Counted from the stretch's first letter, positions 2-52,288 are shown. The stretch: 64,000 bases of DNA from Sulfolobaceae archaeon (GCA_038893355.1 JAWARQ010000001.1:64001-128000), one strand, 5' to 3'. Notes: generated from the letters alone by a model not told the origin. Program-made: numbers and translations.

Positions 2-874
2 CATATTGGTGATGGACTACATAATATTCTCTATACTGGAGATTTTAAGTATGCGAAAACCAGACTTTTAGATAGGGCTACAGACGAGTTTCCAAGAGTA
101 GACACTCTAATCATGGAAACAACTTATGGTGATCATGATCAACAAAGTAGAGAGGAAGCAGAAACACAACTCATTACTATAATAAATGAAACTATAAATA
201 GAAAAGGGAAAGTACTAATACCGGTTTTGGCAGTAGGTAGAGGACAAGAAATAATGTTAGTACTAAATGAAGCAATAAAGAACAAGCTAATGCCAGAGGT
301 ACCAATTTATATAACTGGTCTAGTTGAAGAAATAACTGCAATTCATAATGCTTATCCAGAGTGGCTGAGCAGAGAAGTTAGAGAAGCTATACTTTATAAG
401 GATGAAAATCCATTCACGTCACAGTATTTCCATAGGATAGATGGAATTCGTGAAATAGATGAACCTAGTGTAATAATAGCACCTTCTGGAATGTTAAATG
501 GTGGTCCAGCCTTAGAGTACTTCAAGATGTTAGCCCCTGATAGTAAGAATACAATTATATTTGTAAGTTATCAAGCAGAGGGGACTTTAGGAAGAAAAGT
601 CAGAGATGGTGTTAGGGAAGTCCAAATAATAAATAGGGAAGGCAAAGTAGAGAATATAAAAATAAATATGGAAGTTAAAGTAGTAGAAGGATTCTCTGGG
701 CATTCGGATAGAAGACAATTATTAAACTTTTTGAAAAATATAACACCTAAACCTCGCAATATAATATTAGGCCATGGAGAAAGAAGCGCAATAGCTTCTT
801 TTATGCAATTATTAGAGAAGAATAGAATAAAAGCTAGAGCACCAGAGATTCTTGATAGTATAAGAGTTGTCTGA
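2..874 (+). CDS. beta-CASP ribonuclease aCPSF1/FttA (5'-truncated by window)
   Basis: The frame is open from base 2 ([17 protein letters not shown]...METTYG). It carries the AVGRGQE, SGMLNGG, GFSGHSD and GHGE beta-CASP motifs. Confidence 0.93.
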
Positions 875-13773: not shown

Positions 13774-14306
13774 AAGAAATATATGTTCTAAGACTATATC
13801 ATAGGCCAGAAAGAGATAAGAGAGTAACCACACACTTAATACTCGTAGCAAGAGCCTTTGGGGCAAAGGGTGTTTTTGTAAATGGAGACATAAGTAGTAT
13901 TTCTAAAAGTATAAAGAAGGTGCTAGAATCTTGGGGTGGACACTCTTATTTTATACTTCAGGAAGTTAAAGATCCAAAGAAGTTTGTTCTTGAATGGAAG
14001 AGTAAAGGTGGAAAAGTAGTTCATCTAACGATGTATGGAATAAATATTATTGATATTAAGAATAAACTACTTCAAGAACAATCACCATTATTAGTAATTG
14101 TTGGTTCAGAAAAAGTAGAAAGATGGTACTACGAGAAAGCTGATTATAACGTTGCAATCGGCAACCAGCCGCATTCAGAAGTTGCAGCATTGGCTATATT
14201 TTTAGATCGAATGTATGAAGGGAAAGAACTAGAGTTTAAATTCTTTGACGCGAAATATATAATTATACCACAAGAAAAGGGCAAGAAGGTGATAAGAGTT
14301 GAATAG
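13758..14306 (+). CDS. trm56: tRNA (cytidine56-2'-O)-methyltransferase (start probably non-canonical ATA)
   Basis: The conserved [19 protein letters not shown]-terminus lies in frame upstream of the tracked GTG (13920). HLTMYG and [11 protein letters not shown] motifs are present. Confidence 0.9.
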
Positions 14307-37012: not shown

Positions 37013-38065
37013 TTAAATATACCCTAAACTTTTCATAACTTCAGCAGTTAGTATAGTTATTCCTGCAGCACCTCTAACTAAATTATCTCCCAATACTATA
37101 AACCTTATTACATCATTCTGAACCTTTATTCTACCAACACTTATTGCCATTCCATTCTCTAAGGATAAATCTCTAGCTGGTTGCGGTCTATCCTCCTCCT
37201 CCATTACGATTATTGGCCTTTTTGGTGCTGTAGGTAATTCTTTCTCTTGTGGTAGGGATTTAAATGTACTTAACCTTCTTTTTATTTCTTCTATACTCAC
37301 ATCTTCACTAATACCACTTAGCTGGATTACAGCCATATGACCAACTCTAATTGGTACTCTTGTTGCTGTAACAAAAGATTTAATGTCTTCATAAATTAAA
37401 GTATTATTATTAATTTTTCCTAACATCTTATTTATTTCTTTTGAAATTTTTTCCTCTTCTCCTTTAATATAAGGAATTACGTTATCATATATACTCATAA
37501 ATGAGAGTCCATTATATCCTGCACCACTTACGGATTGTAAGGTTGTTATATAAATTCTATCAAATTTCAGGAAATTATGTAATGGTTTCAAAGATAAGGA
37601 GATTATTGCTGCAGTACAATTAGGATTTTTTATCAGTAAACCCTTCCAGTTTTTTGAATCCCTTTGGATCTTTAATAATTCTAAGTGCTGCCAATTAACT
37701 TCAGGATTTATTAGTGGTACCTTATCATCCATTCTATACGGGCTTGCATTTGAGATTACTATTTTACCTTCTTTAACTAGGCTAATTTCAACATTCTCCG
37801 CTATGTCATTAGGTAGGGCTGATAGTATTAGATCTGAATCTTTATGTTCAGCTGGTTCTGTTGTAACCATCCTTAGATCCCTAACTTCTTCAGGTACTTC
37901 TCCACTCTCTACCCACTTAACAGCTTCAATATATTTCATGCCTTTTTTCTGAGGTGATGCACTTAACTTATTTATTTCAAAGTAAGGATGTTTTGCTAGG
38001 ATTTTTACCATTTTCTGGCCTACTATACCCGTAGCTCCTAGTAGAGAAACTTTTATCTTATCCAT
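37013..38065 (-). CDS. asd: Aspartate-semialdehyde dehydrogenase
   Basis: GATGIVG, NPNCT, QSVSGAG and NLVRGAAG. Confidence 0.95.
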
Positions 38066-39379
38066 TTTAATACCACCTCATGTAATTCATTAGCTAGTTT
38101 ATCTCCTTCTTCTTTATTAGTAATAAATGTTATGCTAGTATTTTTAAGGCCTCTTGATAGAAATTGTATTTCGTATTGTGATATAACTTTCATAACTTCT
38201 TTATTAACTTCATTAAACTTTAATCCGCACCCAACGACGCTTACAGCTTCTACATCCGTTAGAGTTATATCTTTAATTAATACTGATTGTAAATTCTGAA
38301 GACTCTTTACAAGTAATTCTGCATCGGATTTCTTTACAACAACTTGTATGCTAGTTTCAGAGGCAGGCTGGGATATTGCTATGATATTAACTCCTGCATT
38401 TTTCGCTTCTGAGAATATTGTAGCAGCAGAACCTACTCTACCAACCATTTTCATACTTTCTATATTTATCATTACCAAATCTTCCAACTTTGCAATTCCT
38501 TTCAATGTATCCTCCTTACTACATTCTCCTTCTACTACAGTAAAACCAGGCTCATATAATCCCTCTATTATTACTTTCATATTTACTCCAAATAACGGTT
38601 CAAAAGTTCTGGGGTGCAATTTTTTTGCACCTAATTGGGAAAGTTCTATTGCCTCTTCTAAAGAAAGTCTAGGAATTGTTCTTGCATTTTTAAACTTTTT
38701 AGGATCAGCTGTCATTATTCCAGGAACTTCTGTAATTAACCTAACTTCTTTAGATCCTATTAATTTGCCTAATAATGTAGCTGTATAATCACTCCCACCA
38801 CGTCCTAGCGTTGTAAATTTACTATGTATACTTTTACCGATGAATCCTGGTAAAACTACTATTTTATTTTTAAGATTTTTAATATTTTCTAAATTCTTTA
38901 GTGTAAGATTTTCAATTACATTAGCTTCACCATAGTTTTCATCAGTTATGAATGGAGGGTCAATTTTACCTTCTACATCAAATCCATAATTCTTTAATAT
39001 TGCAGAAAGAAGAACTACTGACATTCTTTCCCCAAATGATAGTATGTAATCTTTTACTCGTGTCGTAATCTCATCTATTACCCTTACTGACCACATAACT
39101 TTGTACAGCTCATCTACTAATTTTGACAATTCTCTAAAACTAGATTCAAAAATTTTCCCGTTAGTAAATTTTGAAAGTATTTTAACATGTCTATCATAAA
39201 TTTCGGTTATAATATCCATTGCTCTTTCTGGTTCATATATTGCAGAAAGTAAGTTATTAGTGACATCTTTTATTGCAGATACAACAATATATATCTTATT
39301 ATATTTTTTATAATATTCGTCTATTTTATTAATAATTAATTCGTAATCTTTTATATCTTTTTGAATCGAACCTCCGATT

Positions 39380-39393
<14 letters not shown>
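38053..39393 (-). CDS. lysC: Aspartate kinase
   Basis: [18 protein letters not shown] and ACT domains. Confidence 0.94.
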
Positions 39394-40567
<1,174 letters not shown>

Positions 40568-40581
40568 TTTGCCTTCTTTTC

Positions 40582-40606
40582 TTAGTATGTTTCCAACCTA
40601 TTCACC
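40582..40606 (-). promoter_or_regulatory. Candidate thr leader: SD plus uORF TTG GAA ACA TAC TAA (M-E-T-Y)
   Basis: GGTGA (40606-40602) lies 5 nt before TTG (40596), with TATA TTTATAAC at 40640-40633. Confidence 0.5.
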
Positions 40607-40710
40607 AGGCTACTACACATTCTTAGCATTAGGTTATAAATCTTTCTAGATGCATATAAATTACAGATATAATATATAAAATAATTATAAAGTTAGCTAA
40701 TGAATGTAAA

Positions 40711-40995
40711 TCATACTTCTATATCTTCTCTGAGAGTCTGCTCACCTTTAGTAAATATTATACTAATTCTTTTTAACGTTGGTATTAATAAGGGTATTTC
40801 TATCTTAGAATCTGGTTTTAATTCTAAATCCATATTTTGTTCATCAGTGACTGTTCTTAGACCTAGCCTTTCATCAATTGTAGTTACAGTAGTTTCATAA
40901 ACTAAGTATAGCTTTTTAACTCTTAAAGCTAAGCCAGAAGTATTAAGAATTAAAGCCTTATCGCCCGTAATCTTCACTGCAAAGTTTCTTTTCAT
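40711..40995 (-). CDS. Conserved hypothetical protein divergent from the cdvB paralogue
   Basis: ATG at 40995 (MKRNFAV...), beta-rich ORF. Confidence 0.65.
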   Translation of the reverse strand: MKRNFAVKITGDKALILNTSGLALRVKKLYLVYETTVTTIDERLGLRTVTDEQNMDLELKPDSKIEIPLLIPTLKRISIIFTKGEQTLREDIEV

Positions 40996-41073
40996 ACGAG
41001 ATATTTTATTAACAGTATTATAAGCTTTCAACCTTTATAGCTGATTCAAAGAAGCTAGGGAAATGGAAAGGAG

Positions 41074-41730
41074 ATGGGAAACAAGGTTGAAGAATTTATA
41101 AGGAACTGGAATGGGAAACAAGAACCTAGTATTACAGAGAGAATAAAAAGTGTATTTACCTCACAGAAGCCACTTAGATATCGTCTCATAACTGCACACT
41201 ATAAGCTTAAAACAACTATAAATAGATTAGAAAGTTACATTTCAAGATTACAAGAAAGAGATAGAACACTGTTTGAAAGAGTTGTAGAGGCACATATGAA
41301 TAAAGATACAATGAGGGCTGCGATGTATGCTAATGAAATCGCTGAGATCAGAAAGATTACAAAACAATTATTAGTTACTCAGATAGCATTAGAGCAAGTT
41401 GAGCTCCGACTTGAAACGGTAACTGAATTAGGTGATGTATTTACTAGTCTAATTCCAGTAATAGGCGTTATCAGAGAACTTAAGGCAGCAATAAGAGGTG
41501 TTATGCCAGAGCTAAGCTTTGAACTTGCTGAATTAGAGGAAGGATTACAAGAAGTTGTGTTAGAAGCTGGAGAATTCACTGGAAGTAGAATAGATTTTAG
41601 TGCAACAAGTCCAGAGGCTAGAAAGATATTAGAAGAAGCAGCAGTAATAGCAGAGCAAAGAATGAAGGAAAGATTTCCAGAACTACCGAGCATGGTTACT
41701 ACGAAACAAAATCTTTCAGCTCAAAAATAA
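41074..41730 (+). CDS. ESCRT-III/CdvB paralogue (CdvB2-like, Snf7 family)
   Basis: [24 protein letters not shown] and [14 protein letters not shown], adjacent to ppsA. Confidence 0.9.
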
Positions 41731-41812
41731 TGATTTTTTAAACTCTCTAGAAGTATTAAAACTTCACTATATTTTTTAAAGGAGTATTTTTAAAATAACA
41801 TGAGTCAATTTG

Positions 41813-44197
41813 ATGGGTCAAACTATAAAGAAGAGTTTTGTAGTGGATATTTCTGCTGTAAATAAAAGTATGATTGAGGAAGTAGGGGGAAAGGGTGCTA
41901 ATCTTGGTGAGTTAGTGTCAATTGGCATAAGAGTCCCTCCAGGGTTTATTATTACATCTGATGCATTTAAATATTTTTTAGAATATAATAATTTAATAGA
42001 AAGAATATCTAAATTGCTTAATGAGGTAAAAGATTTTGAAGAAATCAGCAATGAAATAAAGAAATTAATTATTAATTCTAAAATACCACCGGATTTAGAA
42101 GAACAAATTCTTAAAAAATATGAGGAACTAGAAAAAATTGTTGGTAAGAATGTTCTCGTAGCTGTTAGATCTTCTGCAACTGCAGAAGATATTCAAGAAG
42201 CAAGTTTTGCTGGCCAGCAAGATACTTATCTTAATGTGGATAAAAAAGATTTGCTTGAATCGATAAAGAAAGTATGGGCTAGTCTTTATAACGCTAGGGC
42301 GTTGGCATATAGGGCAGCTAAAGGCATTGAACATACGAAAGTTCTAATGGCTGTTATAGTGCAGAAAATGGTTAATGCTCGATCTGCTGGGGTTCTATTT
42401 ACTTTACATCCAGCTAATGGTGATAGAAATGTAATAGTTATAGAATCCAGTTGGGGTTTAGGGGAGGCAGTAGTAAGTGGTAAGGTTACTCCTGATGAAA
42501 TAGTAGTAGATAAAAAATCCTTAAAAATTTTAGAAAAAAAGATATCTAATAAAAAACTTAAAATAATATATGATAAAAATGAAAAGAAAAATAAAATAAT
42601 AGAAACTACTCAAGACGAAGCTGAGAGGGCTAGTATTAGTGATGAGGAGGCAATTGAATTAGCAAAGTATGGTATACGTATTGAAGGGCATTATAAGGTT
42701 CCGATGGATATAGAATGGGCTATAGATCAAGATCTTCCGTATCCCGATAATATCTTTATAGTACAAGCCCGACCTGAAACTTTCTGGTCGTCTAAGAGTA
42801 AAGAAGAAAAAAAAGAAACTAAAATACCAGTTGAGAGAAAAGTCTTAGCTAGGGGTCTACCAGCTAGCCCTGGAATAGCATTTGGTAAGGCTAAAGTTCT
42901 TCTTGATGTAAGGGATGCTAAAGATTTCAATAAAGGAGATATTCTAATTACAAAGATGACAGACCCTGATTGGGTACCAATAATGAAGATTGCTTCTGCT
43001 ATTGTTACTGATGAAGGTGGTATGACCAGTCATGCTGCAATAGTATCTAGAGAGTTAGGAATACCTGCAGTAGTAGGTACAGGTAATGCGACTCAAGTAA
43101 TTTCTAATGGTCAAGAGATAACAGTAGATGCTTTTAGGGGGTTAGTTTACGAAGGGAGAGCGGATATATTTACAGAGATTAAGGAAGAAGCAAGAGCTCA
43201 AACCGCATCTGCCTTTGTCTCTGGCCTTAGTAGAGATGTAATACTTAATATCTTTCCAGTGACAGCTACGAAAATTTATATGAATTTGGGTCAGCCGGAT
43301 ATAATTAACAAATATTTAGACTTACCATTTGATGGCATAGGGTTAATGAGAATAGAGTTTATCGTGAGTGAATGGATAAGATATCATCCATTATATCTTA
43401 TAAAAATAGGTAAGCCAAATGAATTTGTAGATAAGCTTGCAGAGGGTATTTCAATTGTAGCTTCTGCAATATATCCTAGACCAGTTGTAGTAAGATTTTC
43501 TGATTTTAAGTCTAATGAGTATAAGAGGCTAGAGGGCGGAGAAGAATTTGAACCGGATGAACGAAATCCAATGATCGGATGGAGGGGTGTATCAAGATAT
43601 ATTAATCCTAAGTATGAACCCGCATTTAGATTAGAAGTTAGAGCAATAAGGAAAGTTAGAGAAGAAATGGGTTTAAGAAACGTTTGGGTGATGTTACCAT
43701 TTGTTAGAACTACATGGGAAGTTCAAAGGGTTATAAAAATAATGGAAGAGGAAGGTTTAAAGAAAACTTCAGATTTTAAAGTTTGGATTATGGCAGAGGT
43801 ACCGTCTGTGGTCTTACTAGCAGAAGAATTTGCTAAGTTAGTAGATGGATTTAGTATAGGGAGTAACGATCTTGCACAATTAACTTTAGGAGTTGATAGA
43901 GATTCTGAATTATTAGCTAATATGGGGTATTATGATGAAAGAGATCCTGCAGTTCTTAAGTCCATGAGAATACTCATTAAAGCAGCACATAAGCATAATG
44001 CGACAGTCTCCATATGCGGTCAAGCCCCTAGTGTTTATCCTGAAATCGTTGAGTTTTTAGTTAGAGAAGGTATAGATAGTATAAGTGTGAATCCAGATGC
44101 TGTAATTCAGACAAGGAGGTTAGTAGCATCAATAGAACGTAAATTAATATTGGAGGGCATTAAAGGCAATAAGAATAAAATAAAAGGAAAATTATAA
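41813..44197 (+). CDS. ppsA: Phosphoenolpyruvate synthase
   Basis: [33 protein letters not shown] and ICGQAPS. Confidence 0.96.
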
Positions 44198-44494
44198 CAG
44201 ATTATTATTATGTAAATTATAGCAAATTATACAAATTCTTTTAGATCCTAAACTTATTGATGTACAATCGTTGCAAATTATTCTTCCGCAAATATTGCAT
44301 ATACCAATACTAAGTTTTCTTCCGCAAATTTTACATAATGTCTCTATACAAATTTCACAAATTCCTCTATCATTGGAAATATGTTTTTCACAAACTCTTC
44401 TATTACAGATTTTACAAGAATATTGGGAATAATTTGTATTACAAATTTCACATCTCAATGAACTTTTTAAGGAGTAAATAAGCATCTTCATCAC
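44192..44494 (-). CDS. Cys-rich multi-Zn-finger protein
   Basis: Seven CxxC plus one CxxH. The start is uncertain because of overlap with ino1. Confidence 0.7.
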
Positions 44495-45533
44495 TTTTTG
44501 TATTTAATGGCGGGTGTTTAAAGTAAAATGCAGAAATCTCAGGGATTACACCGCCTATACCTCTATCAAGTGCTATCTTCACTGCACGTATAACATCAAC
44601 GAGTACAGCTGCACAGTTAGCTTTATCATCAACTTCAAGTATTGCCTCAACTTTTACTGGCATTCCTGCAAAACCAATTCCTTTCACATATATGAAGGCT
44701 ACTTTCGTGTTACCTAAAAAAGGAACATAATCGCTAGGTCCTATTCTTATTCTTCCTTCATTTTCTATTTCCCAACTATTTTCTAAGGTAGTGGTTACAG
44801 CTCTTGTCTTGCTTACTCTTTTGGAATGTAGTCTACTTTCTGTCTTCATGTTTAAGAAATCCGTATTACCGCCAATATTTAATTGATAAGTTTCTTCAAC
44901 TTTAACTCCTCTTAATCTAAATAGCGAGGTAAGGGTCCTATGTAGTATTGTAGCTCCAAGTTGACTTTTTATGTCATCACCTACTAAAGGTAAATTTCTC
45001 TCTTTAAATAACTTTGGATATTTACCCGCAGGGTCACTAGCTATAAAGACTGGAATTGCGTTTATGAAAGCAGTTCTCGCTTCCAGAGAAGCTTCGGCAT
45101 ATGCTCTGCTTGCCTTTTCACTTCCTACAGGAAGTAAATTAATTAAGATTTCTGCGCGAGAAGACTTAAGTTCATCAATTACTTCCTCTATAGTACCGTT
45201 TTCGATTGGATTAAAAATATCTCTCATGTGTTCTGCTACACCATCAAGAACTGGTCCCTTTTTTACTATTACACCTTTTTTCTCTATATCAACAATTTTT
45301 GGCACAATATTCGGCTTTTCAAAAATTGCCTCTGTTATATCTTTTCCTACTTTATTCCTAGAAACATCGAATGCCGAAACTATTTCTATGTCACTTATTT
45401 TATACCCTTTCATATTTGGAGTTATTAATCCTTCACAATAATCATCACCTTTTTGTTTATAGTATTCTATGCCTTGAATTAACATTGAAGCGCAATTACC
45501 AATTCCTGCTATTGCGACCCTTATTCTTCCCAT
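44448..45533 (-). CDS. ino1: myo-Inositol-1-phosphate synthase
   Basis: [23 protein letters not shown] and GGNTDFLNM. Confidence 0.94.
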
Positions 45534-45571
45534 AACATTTATAAACAATATCTTCTATTTAAAAACACTTG

Positions 45572-45628
45572 TAAGTGATGAAAAGGAGAAATCTGAATAT
45601 AAATGTAGAAGTGGAGCGACTCTGAAAG
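45572..45628 (+). ncRNA. Candidate C/D-box guide sRNA
   Basis: C box GTGATGA (45575-81), D' CTGA (45593-96), C' ATGTAGA (45603-09) and D CTGA (45622-25). The guides are 11 and 12 nt, and a TTATAAA lies about 30 nt upstream. Confidence 0.75.
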
Positions 45629-45639
45629 AGGTGAAGTAT

Positions 45640-45912
45640 ATGCTGAAGAGATTACATGTAAAGGTTTATGGTGTTGTTCAAGGAGTAGGATTTAGGAGAT
45701 TTGTCCAAATTCATGCGAGAAGATTAGGATTAAAGGGTTATGCAATGAATCTTCCAGACGGTACTGTAGAGGTTGTTGCAGAGGGTTATGAGGAAGCTTT
45801 AAAGAAACTACTAGAATATTTAAAGATTGGTCCTCCTTTAGCTAAGGTTGAAAAGGTAGAATACAGATTTGAGGAATATAAAGGAGAATTTATAACTTTT
45901 GAAACTTATTAA
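45640..45912 (+). CDS. acyP: Acylphosphatase
   Basis: VQGVGFR and [13 protein letters not shown], with GAGGTGA SD before the ATG at 45640. Confidence 0.95.
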
Positions 45913-45997
45913 TTTCTAATAATTAAAAATATTTTTATAGTTTAATAAATAGCTACAAATCAAGAATCTTTATAAGCTAGAACTCTCATTTATCACA

Positions 45998-46023
45998 AGG
46001 TGCTTTTGATGCACCAATGGTAA
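45998..46023 (+). promoter_or_regulatory. Candidate trp leader: SD plus uORF ATG CAC CAA TGG TAA (M-H-Q-W) and an SD-masking hairpin
   Basis: AGGTG (45998-46002), ATG (46009), GGTGC/GCACC stem (45999-46015) and TATA TTTATAAG (45969-45976). Confidence 0.55.
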
Positions 46024-47297
46024 TGAGTGAAGATATAATTCCTAAATACTGGTACAATATTATACCAGATTTACCTAAACCATTACCACCGCCTCGAGAT
46101 CCACCAAATGCGGAGTTTTCAAGAATTGAGTTATTAAGGCAAATAATTCCTTCAGAAATTCTAAGACAACAATTTACTGTTGATAGATATATAAAAATTC
46201 CTTCAGAGGTAATTGAAAGATATCTAGATATTGGAAGACCAACTCCTTTATTTCGTGCAAAGAGATTAGAAGAGTATCTAGGGACTCCTGCGAAAATTTA
46301 TTTTAAGTATGAGGGTGCAACACCTACTGGTTCTCATAAAATTAACACTGCAATACCACAAGCTTATTATTCAATGAAGGATGGTGTAGAAGGTGTGGTA
46401 ACAGAGACAGGAGCTGGACAATGGGGTACTGCTGTGGCATTGGCAGCAAGTATGTATAATTTATCTTCTACAATATTCATGGTAAGAATAAGTTATCTTC
46501 ACAAACCTATGCGAAGAACTATAATGGAAATGTATGGCGCAAAAGTCTATCCTAGTCCTAGCGAAATTACAGAGGTCGGTAAGAGTTATCTTAAGATTAA
46601 TAAAGAACACCCTGGATCACTAGGGCTAGCTATTAGTGAAGCGATCGAATATTCATTAAAAAACAATTATAAGTATTTAATTGGCAGCGTTTTTGATGTA
46701 GTAATTCTTCATCAGAGTATAATAGGTCAAGAAACCATTAGGCAATTAGAACTCATAGGTGAAGAGCCTGATGTCTTAATAGGTTGTGTTGGCGGAGGAA
46801 GTAATTTTGGAGGATTTGTTTTTCCATTTATAGGTAATAAAAAAGGTAAAAGGTATATTGCAGTAACTTCTGCAGAAGTTCCGAAATTTAGTAAGGGTAA
46901 TTATATTTATGACTTTCCGGATTCTGCAGGTTATTTGCCAATGATAAAGATGCTATCATTAGGTAAAGACTATGTTCCACCATCAATATATTCTGGTGGT
47001 TTAAGATATCATGGTGTTGCGCCTTCTTTAAGCCTTCTAATAAAGGAAGGAATAATAGAATGGCGTGAATACTCAGAAAGAGAGATATATGAGGCTGCTA
47101 AAATATTCATGCAAACGCAAGGAATAGTTCCGGCACCAGAATCAGCACATGCAGTGAAAGCCGTTATTGACGAAGCTTTAAACGCAAGAAAAACCGGAGA
47201 GAGGATGACTATTGTATTTAATTTAAGTGGACATGGTCTTCTTGACTTAAGTAATTATCAAGAGATGAGGAAGAGATGGGAGATAATAAGCTCTTAG
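46017..47297 (+). CDS. trpB: Tryptophan synthase beta chain (TrpB2 type)
   Basis: [29 protein letters not shown] and LSGHG. Confidence 0.95.
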
Positions 47298-48022
47298 TAG
47301 TGTATAATACAGTAGGTTTTCCTGATATAGAGAATTACAATAAGGCAATGAAGATAGTTCAGGAAGAAGGTGCTGACATTGTAGAGTTAGGAATTCCACC
47401 GTTATATGCTAAGTATGATGGCCCAATTATAAGAGCTAGTTACCAAGTTGTGAGGAGTAAGTATAAGAGTGAGGAGTTATGGAAAATAATATATAATACT
47501 CGAAAAGATTTAGGAATTCCAGTGGTTTTGTTAACTTATCTTGAAGAATGGATATATAAGATTAATGAACTTTTAGATAATCTGCATAAATACGAAATTG
47601 ATGCAATATTACTTCCAGATCTTTTAATTGACTTCATTGATGAATATGAAAAATATATAAATTTATTAAAAGATAATAAAATAAAAACAGTATTATTTGT
47701 AACACCTACTATTCCAGACCATATAATTTCAAAGGTTCAAGGCCTTTCTGATTTATTCCTATATTATGGAATAAGACCAACTACTGGTGTTGAAATTCCA
47801 ATAGACATATTTACTCTTTTAAGGAGAATTAAGGGTTTCATTAAAAATAAACTTGTTGTTGGATTTGGATTAAAAAGTGAAGATGAAATTAGAAATGCAG
47901 TAGTGGCTGGTGCTGATGGAGTTGCCATAGGTTCTCTAATTATAGAATATATTAAAAATTACAATTTTAATGTTTTAAAGGAAAAAATTAAAAAAATTAG
48001 GTTGATTTTAAATGAGCTATAA
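47276..48022 (+). CDS. trpA: Tryptophan synthase alpha chain
   Basis: ELGIPP..KYDGP.I, VGFG and ADGVAIGS. Confidence 0.92.
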
Positions 48023-49052
48023 AACAATCTTAGAAAAATTAATAAATAGACAAAATTTAAGTGTAGAAGAAAGTGAAGAGATTGCAAGGGAAATAATACT
48101 TGGAAATCTACCCGAAACAATAGTTTCAGCAATCTTAGTCCTTTTAAGAGCTAAGAGAGAGACATCTGAAGAAATTGTGGGTTTTGCTCGAGCTCTAAGA
48201 AATTCTATGATCAGGGTCATTTTAGATAAACAGGCTATAGATACTGCAGGCACAGGTGGTGATGGTTATAATACCATAAATGTAAGTACAGTAGCTGCAT
48301 TACTTTTAAGTAAAGTTATTCCAGTTGCAAAACACGGAAATAGGGCAGTTTCAGGAATAAGCGGTAGTGCTGACTTTCTAGAAGGACTAGGTTATAATAT
48401 TTTAGTAAGACCAGAGGTTGCAAAGGAGCTTATCAATAAATGTAATTTTGTATTTTTATACGCACCGTTATATCATCCTGCAATGAAAAATGTAGCAAAC
48501 GTAAGGAAGCAGTTAGGTATAAAGACTATTTTTAATATACTTGGGCCTTTAAGCAATCCCGCAGAGGTAAAAGTTCAAATGAGCGGAGTTTTCTCATTAG
48601 AATACGCAGAAAAAATAAGTGAAGCTGCAAGGGAATTAGATTACGAAAGACTTTTAATATATCATGGAGAGCCTGGAATTGATGAAGTAAGTCCTATAGG
48701 AAATACTTACATATTTGAAATAAGAAAAAAGAAAGTTGAAAAATATTTAGTTAATGTAAAAGAATTTGGTATTGAGCCATTTCCTATACAGAAAGTAATT
48801 GTTAATTCCGTCGAAGAATCTATTATTAGAGTATTAAGGGCATCGCTAGGCAAAGATGATGAGGCAAGTAAATTTATATGTATAAATACTGCAATTGGGC
48901 TTTATTCTATTAATAAATGTAAAGAATTTAAAGATTGTTATGAATTATGTAATATATTGTTATCAGAATTAATAAATATAATAAGAAATATTATAAATTT
49001 AAACGGAGATTCTAATAAATTAAATAATTTATTGGTGAAAGTTAATGGTTAG
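48012..49052 (+). CDS. trpD: Anthranilate phosphoribosyltransferase
   Basis: DTAGTGGD, NVST, KHGN and GSAD. Confidence 0.96.
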   Translation: MSYKTILEKLINRQNLSVEESEEIAREIILGNLPETIVSAILVLLRAKRETSEEIVGFARALRNSMIRVILDKQAIDTAGTGGDGYNTINVSTVAALLLSKVIPVAKHGNRAVSGISGSADFLEGLGYNILVRPEVAKELINKCNFVFLYAPLYHPAMKNVANVRKQLGIKTIFNILGPLSNPAEVKVQMSGVFSLEYAEKISEAARELDYERLLIYHGEPGIDEVSPIGNTYIFEIRKKKVEKYLVNVKEFGIEPFPIQKVIVNSVEESIIRVLRASLGKDDEASKFICINTAIGLYSINKCKEFKDCYELCNILLSELINIIRNIINLNGDSNKLNNLLVKVNG

Positions 49053-49671
49053 ATTGAAAATATGCGGAAATTCTACGTTAAGTGATATAATTAATCTTGA
49101 TAAGTTTGAAGGGGTAGACTATATAGGAATAATCATTGAGGAGAATAGTCCAAGATTTACAAAGCCCGAATTTATTAATATAGTCAAAAAATTTATTAAA
49201 AAACCAATAGTAGCAGTAAAAGCTAAAGGTAATGTAGAAGAAATAATTAAGAAGGCTGAAGATGCAGATTATATTCAAATACATAGAGTTCTTCAAGATT
49301 ATGAGTTAGAACTTTTAAGTAGTTATTACTCTAACAAGAAAATCATACTTTATGTTCCTGCTGACATTTCATATAAAAATTATTTAAATAAAGTTATGAA
49401 ATTAGATTTTAAAATACTAATTGACGTATTAATTAAGGGTAGATCTATAGAAGTTTCCCAAATACGATCATTAGTTGGAGATAAGATTGCAGACGAAAGA
49501 GTAGGAGTAGCAGGTAAGATTGAGATTGAAAATATTGGCAAATTTCTTGAGTTAGAACCGGGATGGATAGATATATCTAGTAGTGTAGAAATCTACCCAG
49601 GTAAAAAGGATATTAATAAGATTAAAAAACTTATTGAGGTGATAAAAAATAGAAATTCATCCAATTTCTAA
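49045..49671 (+). CDS. trpF: Phosphoribosylanthranilate isomerase
   Basis: KICG, SPR, QIH and DISSSVE..PGKKD. Confidence 0.92.
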   Translation: MVRLKICGNSTLSDIINLDKFEGVDYIGIIIEENSPRFTKPEFINIVKKFIKKPIVAVKAKGNVEEIIKKAEDADYIQIHRVLQDYELELLSSYYSNKKIILYVPADISYKNYLNKVMKLDFKILIDVLIKGRSIEVSQIRSLVGDKIADERVGVAGKIEIENIGKFLELEPGWIDISSSVEIYPGKKDINKIKKLIEVIKNRNSSNF

Positions 49672-50953
49672 TTTTGCCCCACCTTACGAAGTTTTTAGAT
49701 GTATAGAGGAAAGAGAAAACATAGCAGCATTGTTGGAAAGTGGTGAGGGACCAGAACATATAACTAGATATAGTATTATAGCATGGGGAAGTAAAGAATA
49801 TATAAAGTTTAAGAATGGTAAAGCATATGGTTCTATTTTGGGTGAATTCGATGATCCTTTAATACCATTATTTAAATTATTGGAAAAAGCTCCATATGTT
49901 ACTTCTCTACCTGGAATATTTAGAGGTGGAATAATAGGTTACTTTTCATATGATATGGTAAGATATTGGGAAAGGTTACCAAATATTACAACTGATCTTG
50001 ACAATTGGCCTGATTTTGAATTCTTTATTCCACAGAATTTTATTATTTATGATCATGCAGAGGGTAAAGTATATACTTATGGTGAAATTCCTCAACTTTC
50101 TTCATGTAGAGAAATTGGTGATATTAAATCAAAATTAATTGAAGAATCTCTAAATAGGGAAGAATATGAGAAAGCAGTAGCTAATGCATTAGAGTATATT
50201 CGATCTGGATATATTTTTCAAGTAGTAATTTCTAGATTTTATAAATATGAAATTAATGGAGATCCAATGAAATTCTACTATAGATTAAGAAAGACAAATC
50301 CTTCACCTTATATGTTTTATTTAAAGTTTAATGAAAGAAGTCTTATTGGATCTAGTCCAGAAACTTTATTTAGAGTTAAAGGCTCTATTGTTGAAACATA
50401 CCCTATAGCAGGCACTAGACCAAGGGGACGGGATGTAGAAGAGGATCTTAAATTAGAGGCTGAGTTAATTAATTCAGAAAAGGATAAAGCAGAGCATTTA
50501 ATGTTAGTTGACTTAGCAAGAAATGATTTAGGTAAAGTATGTGTAGCAGGCTCTGTAAAGGTACCAGAATTAATGTATATTGAAAAATATAGCCATGTCC
50601 AACATCTAGTAAGTAAGGTAATAGGAATTTTAAGGAAGAATAGTAATGCATTTGATGTTCTAAAAGCAACTTTTCCTGCTGGAACAGTTTCTGGTGCACC
50701 TAAACCAATGGCGATGAAAATAATTGAAGAGTTTGAAAATTATAGACGTGGACCTTATGCAGGCGCAGTAGGGTTCTTCTCAAAAAATGGTGATTCTGAA
50801 TTTGCTATTTTAATCCGTAGTGGTTTTATAATTCATAATATACTCAGAATTCAAGCAGGTGCAGGAATTGTATACGATTCTGAACCTTATCTGGAATATC
50901 TTGAAACAGAGCATAAATTAAAAGCATTAAAGGTAGCATTAGGTGTTGAATAA
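49649..50953 (+). CDS. trpE: Anthranilate synthase component I (apparent ATA start)
   Basis: The conserved (M)[20 protein letters not shown]-terminus lies in frame upstream of the tracked [25 protein letters not shown] and [10 protein letters not shown] are present. Confidence 0.95.
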
Positions 50954-51534
50954 TGGATTTAACTCTAGTAATAGATAATTATGATAGTTTTGTATATAAT
51001 ATAGTTCAATATGTAGCTGAGCTGGGGTCTAGACCAATAGTTATTAGGAACGATGAAATTTCATTAAGCGGTGTTGAAAGGATTGAACCAGATAGAATTA
51101 TAATTTCTCCAGGTCCAGGAACTCCAGAGAAGAAGGAGGATATTGGGATAGTAATTGATGTTATAAGAAAGCTTGGTAAAAGGATTCCGATTCTTGGAAT
51201 ATGTTTAGGTCATCAGGCGATAGGTTATGCTTATGGTGCTAGAATAAGAAGGGCTAAAAAAATATATCATGGCAAAATTAGTAAAATAAAACATTTTCAA
51301 AATTCTGTATTATTTACTGAAATACCAGAGATATTTGAGGCAACGCGTTATCATAGTTTAGTTATAGATAATCCTACTGAATTGTTAAAAATTACTGCAA
51401 TATCTTTAGAGGATAATGAAATAATGGGAATAGAACATAGAGAATATAAAATCTTTGGCGTCCAGTTTCATCCAGAAAGTATAGGAACCTCAGTTGGTTA
51501 TAAAATATTTTACAACTTTTTTAATAGAGTATAA
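50953..51534 (+). CDS. trpG: Anthranilate synthase component II
   Basis: DNYDSF, SPGPG, GICLGHQ and QFHPES. Confidence 0.95.
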
Positions 51535-51535
51535 T

Positions 51536-52288
51536 ATGCCTAGATATCTTAAAGGTTGGCTAAGAGACGTAGTTGAAAATGCAATTAATAGAGAATATAT
51601 TTCTAAGACTAGGGAGAGACCAATTTTTTCTCTATCATGGAGCATTAAAAAAAGGGTTAACGAGGGAAAAACTGCAGTTATAGCAGAGTATAAGAAAAAA
51701 TCACCTTCATCAGGTCAGATATCTAATATAGATCCTATAGAATATGTGAAATTTATGGAAAAGGCAGGAGTTGCTGGAATAAGTGTTGTAACCGAGCCAA
51801 AATATTTTGGTGGTTCTTATTATGTATTTGAAAGTATATCAAAAATAGTAAATATACCAATATTATTTAAAGATTTTATAGTCACAGAAAAGCAGATAGA
51901 TACTGCATATAACCTAGGAGCGGATGCTGTACTTCTAATAGTCAAGATACTTACAGAGAGAGAATTATTTAATTTAATTGAATATTGTAAAACTTATAAG
52001 ATCGAAACAATTGTAGAAATTAGTAATAAAGAAGAGCTCGAAATAGCACTTTCAGCAGGTGCTAAAATAATTGGGGTAAATGCTAGAAATTTAGAGACAT
52101 TTGAAATTAATATAAATAAAGTAAAGGAAATTTTAAGTGAAATACCTAAAGATGTGATAAAAATAGCAGAAAGCGGAATAACTTCACGTGAAGAAATAGA
52201 AGAATTAAGAAAAGCAGGGGCTGACGCCTTTCTTATAGGTACATCTTTACTCAGAGAACCTAAAAAAATAAAAGAGTTTATTAGTTGA
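51536..52288 (+). CDS. trpC: Indole-3-glycerol-phosphate synthase
   Basis: MPRYLKGWL, IAEYK.KSPS, KDFI and AESGI. Confidence 0.96.
   Translation: MPRYLKGWLRDVVENAINREYISKTRERPIFSLSWSIKKRVNEGKTAVIAEYKKKSPSSGQISNIDPIEYVKFMEKAGVAGISVVTEPKYFGGSYYVFESISKIVNIPILFKDFIVTEKQIDTAYNLGADAVLLIVKILTERELFNLIEYCKTYKIETIVEISNKEELEIALSAGAKIIGVNARNLETFEININKVKEILSEIPKDVIKIAESGITSREEIEELRKAGADAFLIGTSLLREPKKIKEFIS

Follow-up and report, generated by a model that had tools for sequence, protein, structure and literature searches.

The threonine (thr) and tryptophan (trp) operons of a Sulfolobaceae archaeon, both of which lie in a 64,000-nucleotide (nt) stretch of DNA (GCA_038893355.1, JAWARQ010000001.1:64001-128000; hereafter the window, with positions counted from its first letter), are each preceded by a four-codon open reading frame (ORF) that carries a codon for the operon's end product and is so placed that a ribosome slipping back by one base at this codon would run into the first gene of the operon. 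On the strength of comparisons with related genomes, we consider it probable that these leaders are translated and sense charged transfer RNA (tRNA), -1 slippage of the tRNA in the peptidyl (P) site, at a cognate codon left hungry for its aminoacyl-tRNA, carrying the ribosome into the enzyme gene. We are somewhat less sure, while still inclined to believe it, that the leaders belong to an ancient, order-wide class of "frameshift attenuators," in which a single cognate codon in a leader of 3-16 codons is coupled to a -1 P-site slip, which serves at least the thr, trp, and aromatic (aro) operons, and which would be the sole route to threonine synthase in several lineages. By sequence comparison we can document how the leaders are built, their register, the frame left open, the lack of thrC starts, the signs of coding in the linker, the rule at the slip site, and the match between sensor codon and end product.

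An earlier note on this DNA had drawn attention to the common layout, namely, a TATA box, a GGTG Shine–Dalgarno (SD) sequence, and a four-codon ORF bearing ACA for threonine or TGG for tryptophan, and every element lies where it had been placed. The elements, of which all but the two genes were read in the sequence, are as follows.

40634 to 40640, minus strand: TATA box TTTATAA of the thr promoter
40602 to 40606, minus strand: SD sequence GGTGA of the thr leader
40582 to 40596, minus strand: thr leader ORF, TTG GAA ACA TAC TAA (M-E-T-Y-stop)
40594 to 40591, minus strand: thr slip context G-GAA
40590 to 40588, minus strand: Thr sensor codon ACA
40568 to 40597, minus strand: stop-free linker in the thrC frame, GTT GGA AAC ATA CTA AGA AAA GAA GGC AAA
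39380 to 40567, minus strand: thrC, the leading gene of the thr operon, for threonine synthase with a zinc ribbon at its N-terminus (NCBIfam TIGR00260, 287.7 bits; cutoff 167.1)
45969 to 45975, plus strand: TATA box TTTATAA of the trp promoter
45999 to 46002, plus strand: SD sequence GGTG of the trp leader
46009 to 46023, plus strand: trp leader ORF, ATG CAC CAA TGG TAA (M-H-Q-W-stop)
46014 to 46017, plus strand: trp slip context C-CAA
46018 to 46020, plus strand: Trp sensor codon TGG
46017 to 47297, plus strand: trpB (TrpB2-type), first gene of the trp operon (NCBIfam PRK12391, 642.7 bits; cutoff 366)

The genes in question are those of the threonine synthase and TrpB2 operons, as curated NCBIfam models score above their cutoffs. 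Both thrC and trpB lie in the -1 frame of their own upstream ORF (uORF) and, as had been claimed, a -1 slip meets no stop before the first gene in either operon; the register and the open frame are kept in relatives. In the case of thrC, an in-frame TAG at 40600-40598 shuts the frame, which is open from there on, from GTT at 40597 to the ATG at 40567, and the uORF ends 14 nt before this ATG. In the case of trpB, the ATG (46017-46019) sits inside the uORF, in the string CA-ATG-G, being made up of the A of CAA and the TG of TGG.

In the mechanism that we propose, the strong SD sequence GGTG would seat a ribosome at the leader start codon. After one to three codons a NAN codon for Glu, Gln, or Asp, with the same base N before it, would occupy the P site while ACN or TGG stands in the aminoacyl (A) site. 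If Thr-tRNA or Trp-tRNA is ample, the sensor codon would be read and the ribosome would reach a stop zero to five codons further on, having made only a peptide of about four residues. If the cognate aminoacyl-tRNA is scarce, the A site would stay empty and the weakly paired P-site tRNA would slip back by one base, from GAA to GGA or from CAA to CCA; the SD/anti-SD duplex 9-12 nt upstream may help to pull it. Decoding would then go on in the -1 frame, that of the enzyme gene, and enzyme output would go up as the amino acid falls. We infer that the shift is ribosomal, hunger-dependent, and SD-stimulated. According to PMC8211752, -1 slippage of a single tRNA with a vacant A site is an established mechanism. 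In the window organism and in most of its family, where the thrC ATG lies 8-14 nt past the uORF stop, reinitiation or direct initiation may add a basal level of enzyme. The hungry-codon model had been put forward in the earlier note, and each of its predictions at the level of sequence finds support in the comparative data presented below.

With two cases in hand, the earlier note had not excluded chance. The rarity of the design in the genome, its recurrence in one register, and the cognate nature of its sensor have removed that worry; the observation is confirmed as real and chance is excluded. The window's assembly (1.40 Mb in 17 contigs, 84% complete) was scanned on both strands with a strict rule, which called for an SD word 3-10 nt before ATG, GTG, or TTG, zero to two more codons, a NAN P-site codon preceded by N, a short uORF, and a -1 ORF of at least 100 codons whose frame is closed and start-less just upstream. 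Nine matches (8 uORFs) were obtained, the thr and trp leaders among them. A looser rule, applied to the first genes of transcription units only, gave 29 matches, and by eye only those of thr, trp, and aro resemble leaders. The suggestion that other amino-acid operons be searched was borne out by aro, described below; nothing else of the kind turned up among the 29 matches, which were inspected by eye in an assembly that is 84% complete. Counts were taken from the stricter filters only, loose scans for an SD sequence and a mini-ORF being swamped by matches in coding interiors. Two examples are ATG GAG ACA TAA at window positions 13882-13893, which reads like an internal part of a longer coding frame, and GTG CAC CAA CAT TAG on contig C5, inside a long ORF.

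We also scanned the 130 nt upstream of thrC and trpB in the relatives without regard to register, asking for an SD sequence, a start codon, up to two codons, N-NAN, and a short uORF in each of the three registers, where register 0 places the gene in the -1 frame. The numbers of matches, with the residues encoded at the sensor position (one-letter code) for register 0, were as follows.

thrC, register 0: T 75, stop 11, G 2, Q 1, N 1, L 1; register 1: 2; register 2: 4
trpB, register 0: W 95, others 6; register 1: 1; register 2: 1

The same-register design thus places a Thr sensor before 75 of 104 thrC loci and a Trp sensor before 95 of 105 trpB loci, in 10 or more families. The sensor is always cognate, with no Trp in any thrC leader and no Thr in any trpB leader.

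A comparison of the 5' regions of thrC and trpB across the order had been recommended as a check, and now that it has been carried out the SD sequence, the uORF frame, and the cognate codon prove to be conserved. We located thrC in 41 of 41 close relatives, 47 of 47 family genomes, and 181 of 325 genomes of the order (E <= 1e-80). From a sample of 112 5' regions, 105 had an N-terminal match and 104 could be anchored at the first Cys of the ThrC zinc ribbon. When the 140 nt upstream were searched in every frame for ATG, TTG, or GTG followed by GA[AG] and AC[N], this motif was found in 67 of the 104 loci, including all 46 family loci and members of families f2, f3, f5, f8, f9, and f11. The distance from the motif to the first ThrC Cys codon was 2 mod 3 in every match, even though it fell into 13 classes (23, 26, 29, 35, 41, 44, 50, 53, 56, 59, 62, 68, and 74 nt); the chance that twelve further classes would share the register of the first is about 2e-6, with the qualification that the classes are not fully independent.

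Counting variant forms, 76 thr leaders were assembled. Their sensor codon is ACA in 63, ACG in 12, and ACC in 1, and their start codon is TTG in 66, ATG in 4, and GTG in 6. That the sensor codons are synonymous and the start codons interchangeable favors decoding over a nucleotide motif. The variants include TTG GAT AC[A/G] (M-D-T) in f2 and, in one genus of f5, GTG TCG GAA ACG TAG (M-S-E-T-stop). Three lineages (f3 g77, f8 g21, and f3 g28) have before thrC the trp-type scaffold M-X-Q-, in which TGG is replaced by a Thr codon (ATG CGC CAA ACA.., ATG CTC CAA ACG AAG TAG, and ATG TTC CAA ACC TAT TAG), and no thrC start codon is present in any of them. Judged by these variants, what is conserved is the design and not the string.

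Two further thrC arrangements were noted. In genera g33 and g38 of f9 (L084-L088, L117, and L120), thrC is preceded by an SD sequence, five nucleotides, and TTG ACA.., with ATTGACA invariant in 7 of 7 loci; in this A-TTG-ACA form Thr is codon 2, and either the initiator tRNA would slip (TTG to ATT) or ATT would be the start. At G008:C1:1845577-1846693 (minus strand), in a single genome of the family, thrC is interrupted by one TAG, and its matches are split into residues 1-73 and 68-375.

The stretch between the leader and the body of thrC behaves as protein-coding sequence in the thrC frame. In all 67 loci with the strict motif no stop interrupts the -1 frame between GGA AAC and the zinc ribbon, and in 17 of these the thrC-frame stretch has no ATG, GTG, or TTG; the start-less loci comprise G021, G059, G013, and G042, from two genera of the window's own family, together with members of f2, f3, f5, and f11. 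Three more start-less thrC loci have the C-CAA-ACN form. A downstream ORF without a start of its own is therefore found in 17 of 67 plus these three thr loci, and not in the window, trpB, or the first aro gene, tkt, where an ATG is present. Aligned with the presumptive Met1 of thrC are TTG, TTG, CTG, and TTA in genus g14, CTA in g7, and TTG and TTA in g12, all of them Leu codons. The linkers of G023 and G013 differ by GAG/GAA, TTA/CTT, and TTG/CTG, all silent in the thrC frame, whereas two of the three alter the uORF peptide. The f5 linkers measure 56-74 nt and differ in length by multiples of 3 only, and they read ..[IV]-F-[KR]-[ED]-G-V-x-L-[RK]-C, a string common to f5, f9, and f11. Past the uORF stop, pairwise differences within the family number 56, 95, and 212 at thrC codon positions 1, 2, and 3, respectively (209 pairs, which are not independent), and conservation at the protein level starts right at the slip site (G-N...). 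By these signs the linker appears to be translated in the thrC frame.

Public gene models are in keeping with the missing starts. A public protein identical to the product of G028 is called at 357 residues, with its start after the zinc ribbon, and the ThrC calls P0001, P0003, P0039, P0092, and P0100, from start-less lineages, are 350-381 residues long and begin after or inside the zinc ribbon; in relatives without a start, gene callers cut ThrC down to 350-363 residues or place its first residue within the ribbon. Since the start codon is missing, these short models look like systematic mis-annotation.

As to the trp leaders, a trpB gene was found in 184 of the 325 order genomes (E <= 1e-120), and 105 of 112 fetched 5' regions were analyzed. 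The trp form of the leader (an SD sequence, a start codon, one or two codons, and N-NAA-TGG) is present in 95 of the 105, among them all 47 family operon copies and loci from f2, f3, f5, f8, f9, f11, and f13. The ten trpB loci without it are two TrpB2 paralogues of the family that lie outside the operon, six loci from f10, one from f7, and one from f8; the out-of-operon paralogues are useful negative controls. The leader peptides are M-[HSYFRP]-Q-W, M-[EQ]-R-Q-W, or M-L-E-W, and TGG is separated from the stop by no codon in 46 of the 95 leaders and by one codon in 39. An in-frame leader start is always kept, at -7 or at -10, by compensating changes: ATA at -7 goes with ATG at -10 in three g4 loci, TTC at -7 with TTG at -10 in G049, and TTA at -10 with ATG at -7 in G056. 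All 95 leader-bearing loci have G as the initial base of trpB codon 2, as against 22% of crude gene calls in this genome. This invariant G belongs to TGG, and the residue that it helps to encode in trpB varies (V, A, E, D, or G).

A single rule governs the slip site. Without exception, the 76 thr and 95 trp leaders have a NAN codon before the sensor, and the base in front of this codon repeats the codon's first base, the contexts being G_GAA (67), G_GAT (5), and C_CAA (4) in the thr leaders and C_CAA (92) and G_GAA (3) in the trp leaders. The codon preceding CAA in the trp leaders (CAC, TAC, AGC, TCC, TTC, CGC, or CCC) always ends in C, and the three trp leaders with G_GAA (G180, G182, and G149) have CTG or TTG there; CG or GC intermediates of the switch between CC and GG were not seen among the trp leaders. 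N-NAN is what re-pairing of the P-site tRNA one base back requires (GAA to GGA, CAA to CCA), and it is not predicted by a hairpin or an operator. The canonical slippery heptamer X XXY YYZ does not occur, the contexts being G_GAA_ACA, G_GAT_ACG, C_CAA_ACN, C_CAA_TGG, and G_GAA_TGG.

The third leader belongs to an aro operon of the window's genome, at locus L207 (G000:C2:43000-53500), where its elements, on the minus strand and in the coordinates of that locus, are the following.

10346 to 10340, minus strand: TATA box
10316 to 10313, minus strand: SD sequence GGGG, 30 nt after the TATA box
10305 to 10288, minus strand: aro leader uORF, TTG TTC CAA TGG AAA TGA
10297 to 10295, minus strand: ATG of tkt, the first aro gene, overlapped by the uORF

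By NCBIfam the operon runs in the order split transketolase, chorismate mutase/prephenate dehydrogenase, DAHP synthase, aroB, aroE, aroC, shikimate kinase, aroA, and aroD. CCAATGG, that is, C_CAA_TGG, is kept in 30 of 30 family aro loci (the relatives L208-L237, from 13 genera). In 27 of the 30, the uORF has 13-16 codons, extends in the +1 frame over the N-terminus of transketolase, and ends in ...C_CAA_TAT-X-stop, and 13 of the 30 also have G_GAA_TTC, as in L-R-Q-W-V-S-V-M-E-F-Q-Y-L-stop. Slip contexts thus stand before Trp, Phe, and Tyr codons in an operon that feeds all three amino acids, and this lends independent support to the idea of a sensor.

The spacing of the promoter elements bears on whether the leaders are transcribed. 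A conserved AAAGCTTATAWTT-like box starts 32-37 nt before the thr GGTG in the 46 family loci, and a TATA-like hexamer starts 27-34 nt (mostly 28-32 nt) before the trp GGTG in 45 of 47 family loci. In Sulfolobus promoters the TATA box is centered near -26/-27 from the start of the transcript. By this spacing, the thr transcript is predicted to start a few nucleotides upstream of the SD sequence, and the trp transcript probably starts at or beside GGTG. Contigs from 24 RNA runs, over a relative's 8.6-kb stretch that spans both leaders, bridge the leaders or break uninformatively and give no 5' ends. The SD sequence itself is held in place: GGTG(A/G) lies 5-8 nt before the thr uORF start in 46 of 46 family loci, and the trp GGTG is invariant and at a fixed distance from CCAATGG in 47 of 47. 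Measured to the P-site codon, GGTG ends 8-13 nt upstream in 74 of the 76 thr leaders and 11-17 nt upstream in those trp leaders, 83 of the 95, in which GGTG is present. In the case of dnaX, an SD/anti-SD duplex at such distances stimulates -1 slippage.

Several observations weigh against a frameshifting sensor and are best considered together. The leader is missing before thrC in f10 and in parts of f9, f12, and f13, and it is absent before trpB in f10; moreover, the counts given above run over related genomes and are not independent. The spacing of the TATA boxes is the one basis on which we infer that the uORFs lie inside the transcripts, and the start predicted for trp would put the SD sequence at the extreme 5' end of the mRNA. 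(Within the family the GTG of the trp GGTG is in frame with the uORF, and therefore a leaderless GTG start would feed the same frame.) Re-pairing after the slip would be imperfect, with G.U at the middle position of G-GAA, a C.U mismatch at that of C-CAA, and an additional wobble mismatch for G-GAT. In the 84%-complete assembly, ARAGORN did not find tRNA-Glu(UUC) or tRNA-Trp. An in-frame ATG is kept by trpB, tkt, and most thrC genes of the family, and there frameshifting is not required. The trpB ATG arises automatically, because NAA followed by TGG creates it, and its conservation is therefore uninformative as to how trpB is initiated. Finally, the claim that the downstream ATGs lack a comparable SD sequence is weaker in the case of thrC: a partial SD-like sequence, GAAGG, lies 6-10 nt before the thrC ATG in the window, and independent initiation may occur there.

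The main rival is translational coupling, in which the leader terminates, the same ribosome reinitiates at the ATG of the enzyme gene, and the cognate codon tunes the flux without any frameshift. The geometry of many loci suits it. Family loci mostly have the thrC ATG exactly 8 nt beyond the uORF stop or share an ATGA with it, and GG stands 6-8 nt ahead of this ATG; such linkers fit termination and reinitiation as well, which tells against frameshifting. In 85 of the 95 trp leaders the stop comes 1-4 nt past the trpB ATG, which also suits coupling. An ATGA overlap, moreover, would by itself force the -1 register. Coupling could not, however, make ThrC at the 17 loci (plus three) whose thrC frame lacks ATG, GTG, and TTG altogether. 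It also leaves unexplained the synonymous Leu codons at the position of Met1, the conservation of the linker as protein, its lengths in multiples of 3, and the N-NAN rule with its covariation of CC to GG. Its logic, furthermore, is inverted: a ribosome stalled at the hungry codon would cover the start and lower enzyme synthesis in starvation. We consider coupling without a frameshift unlikely.

Less probable still, in our judgment, is noncanonical initiation, with the enzyme frame starting at a near-cognate ATA, ATT, CTG, or TTA in the linker and the leader acting as a competing decoy. What recommends this idea is that f5, G021 and G059, and the window have ATA or ATT at offset +8, the place of ATG in other genera; in addition, the public ThrC call P0008 opens with M at a residue for which the genome-derived frame gives Ile, and the A-TTG-ACA variant (7 loci) can equally be read as an ATT start. 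Genus g14 and genera g16 and g76 of f3 have no ATN there, though, and their sole candidates (CTG, TTA, and CTA) vary as synonymous Leu codons, while the ATA of f5 arises automatically where ACA runs into TAA. The SD sequence lies 13-15 nt from the codons in question, as against 5-8 nt from the leader start, and the protein conservation that begins at the slip site would also be unaccounted for, as would the fact that the decoy always ends on a cognate codon.

Last, the mini-ORFs could be incidental to an operator for a Trp- or Thr-responsive protein or to an RNA hairpin (GGTGC...GCACC) that sequesters the SD sequence. The element sits where transcription is predicted to start, as is typical of the sites of archaeal repressors, and in the family trp leaders a 5-bp helix, GGTGN/NNNCC, can pair in 89.6% of cells, several of the changes being G.U-compatible; no compensatory change was found in this helix, however, and 354 of 500 shuffles reach the observed value, and both the SD-sequestering hairpin and a palindromic operator in the trp leader were rejected for want of covariation. 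We dismiss this as highly improbable. The SD sequence, the start codon, and the slip rule already account for the paired columns, and neither the trp variants with G-GAA nor the leaders of f5 can form the helix. Furthermore, the spacer between SD sequence and start in the thr leaders ranges over 5-8 nt, synonymous changes occur in start and sensor codons, and register with the gene, which should not matter to an operator, is invariant.

To our knowledge, little is settled about the way in which archaea of the crenarchaeal type adjust amino-acid biosynthesis to supply, and no leader-peptide sensor has been described in them. The leaders resemble the bacterial attenuators trpL, thrL, pheL, and hisL in consisting of a short translated ORF with end-product codons; in the latter, the speed of the ribosome reports on charged tRNA. 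Bacterial attenuators, however, control transcription through terminator and antiterminator hairpins and runs of regulatory codons, whereas the leaders considered here would change the reading frame into an enzyme gene, and in an archaeal host. Tandem regulatory codons do not occur: all 76 thr and 95 trp leaders have one sensor codon, and the aro leaders have up to three, each for a different amino acid. Nor was a terminator/antiterminator arrangement found. A terminator would have no room, since the uORF either runs into the gene or leaves at most 14 nt in front of it (in the window it overlaps trpB and ends 14 nt before thrC), and the sole candidate helix is the one without covariation.

In the control of release factor 2 (RF2) by prfB, a slow A-site codon lets the P-site tRNA slip, an SD-like element helps, and the rate of shifting is a feedback sensor. 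The leaders would share with RF2 and antizyme the use of frameshift rate as a feedback report. There, however, the ribosome shifts by +1, either at a stop codon that RF2 reads or in response to polyamines, and the site is inside the regulated gene. Here the register calls for -1 and not +1, and the sensor is a sense codon in an operon leader and not a stop codon, so that the design of RF2 does not apply. Hungry-codon -1 frameshifting in Escherichia coli is an error or a laboratory phenomenon, with no conserved, positioned element and no gene waiting in the -1 frame. Its natural use is called unclear in a major review (PMC5009743).

The earlier note had named a -1 frameshift in the fucA1 gene of Saccharolobus as a precedent, and this is borne out, for S. 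solfataricus, by PMC8211752, which describes the α-L-fucosidase as the only case of -1 frameshifting reported in Archaea and discusses repositioning of the P-site tRNA only. The fucA1 site is like the leaders in direction and archaeal lineage; it differs in that a slippery heptamer in the middle of a split gene joins two halves of an enzyme, without a leader ORF, a cognate sensor codon, or a link to an amino acid. Similar in another respect are the leaderless, Cys-responsive short ORFs of mycobacteria (bioRxiv 10.1101/834739), very short ORFs at 5' ends that are rich in codons for one amino acid and tune an operon for the same amino acid. The accessible part of that report presents them as attenuators of operonic expression with poly-Cys runs and describes no frameshift into a structural gene. 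No prior description of the present leaders was found in the full-text literature, including the available portions of PMC8211752, PMC5009743, PMC3711429, and a 2026 preprint on trpBA of S. acidocaldarius, supplementary tables of transcription start sites not being covered.

If the proposal is correct, the level of charged tRNA would be converted directly into enzyme synthesis by recoding, in about 25 nt of RNA and with neither a protein factor nor an RNA switch. The leaders would then be a recoding-based functional counterpart of bacterial attenuation and the first natural case of hungry-codon frameshifting used as a metabolic sensor. Should experiments confirm dependence on hunger, they would constitute a new class of regulator, kin to both regulatory recoding and leader-ORF sensing. 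The annotation of ThrC, which in many public genomes is cut short or given an odd start, would need correction, its true N-terminus beginning in another frame. And, being a tiny modular element with a swappable sensor codon that is present in genetically tractable relatives of Sulfolobus, the leader could serve as a portable amino-acid biosensor for thermophiles.

The remaining genes of the two operons in the window are these.

38053 to 39393, minus strand: aspartate kinase, 3' of thrC (NCBIfam asp_kinases, 291.6 bits; cutoff 208.7)
37013 to 38065, minus strand: asd, aspartate-semialdehyde dehydrogenase, overlapping the aspartate kinase gene (NCBIfam asd_EA, 470.9 bits; cutoff 301.2)
47276 to 48022, plus strand: trpA (NCBIfam trpA model above cutoff)
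48012 to 49052, plus strand: trpD (NCBIfam trpD model above cutoff)
49730 to 50953, plus strand: trpE (NCBIfam TrpE model above cutoff)
49045 to 49671, 50953 to 51534, and 51494 to 52288, plus strand: three predicted ORFs of the trp operon (from ORF layout only)

Directly upstream of the thr promoter, on the same strand, is a 106-residue ORF with a TTG start (window positions 40711-41031, minus strand) and no Pfam match.

Finally, we note three other loci. At L205 (G000:C2:177050-178000, minus strand), an ORF at 104-814 for an ABC-transporter ATPase (Pfam ABC_tran) is preceded by TTG GAA GAA TCT TAG. The -1 frame is open, with 19 codons that resemble the usual ABC N-terminus before the first ATG, and only some 20 nt separate a TATA-like box from the TTG; either the start may be mis-set or this may be a further frameshift leader, one that senses Glu. 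At L204 (G000:C4:31300-31900), an ORF at 139-537 (plus strand) for a membrane-like protein of 132 residues without a family match has ATG GAA TGG overlapping its ATG; the context, G_GAA_TGG, is like that of the rare trp variant, and the SD sequence is too close. Near position 161807 of G000:C1 (plus strand), outside the window, an ORF without a canonical in-frame start is preceded in the +1 frame by TTG GAA AAG..., and its N-terminus reads like what we take to be that of a KsgA/Dim1-type methyltransferase.

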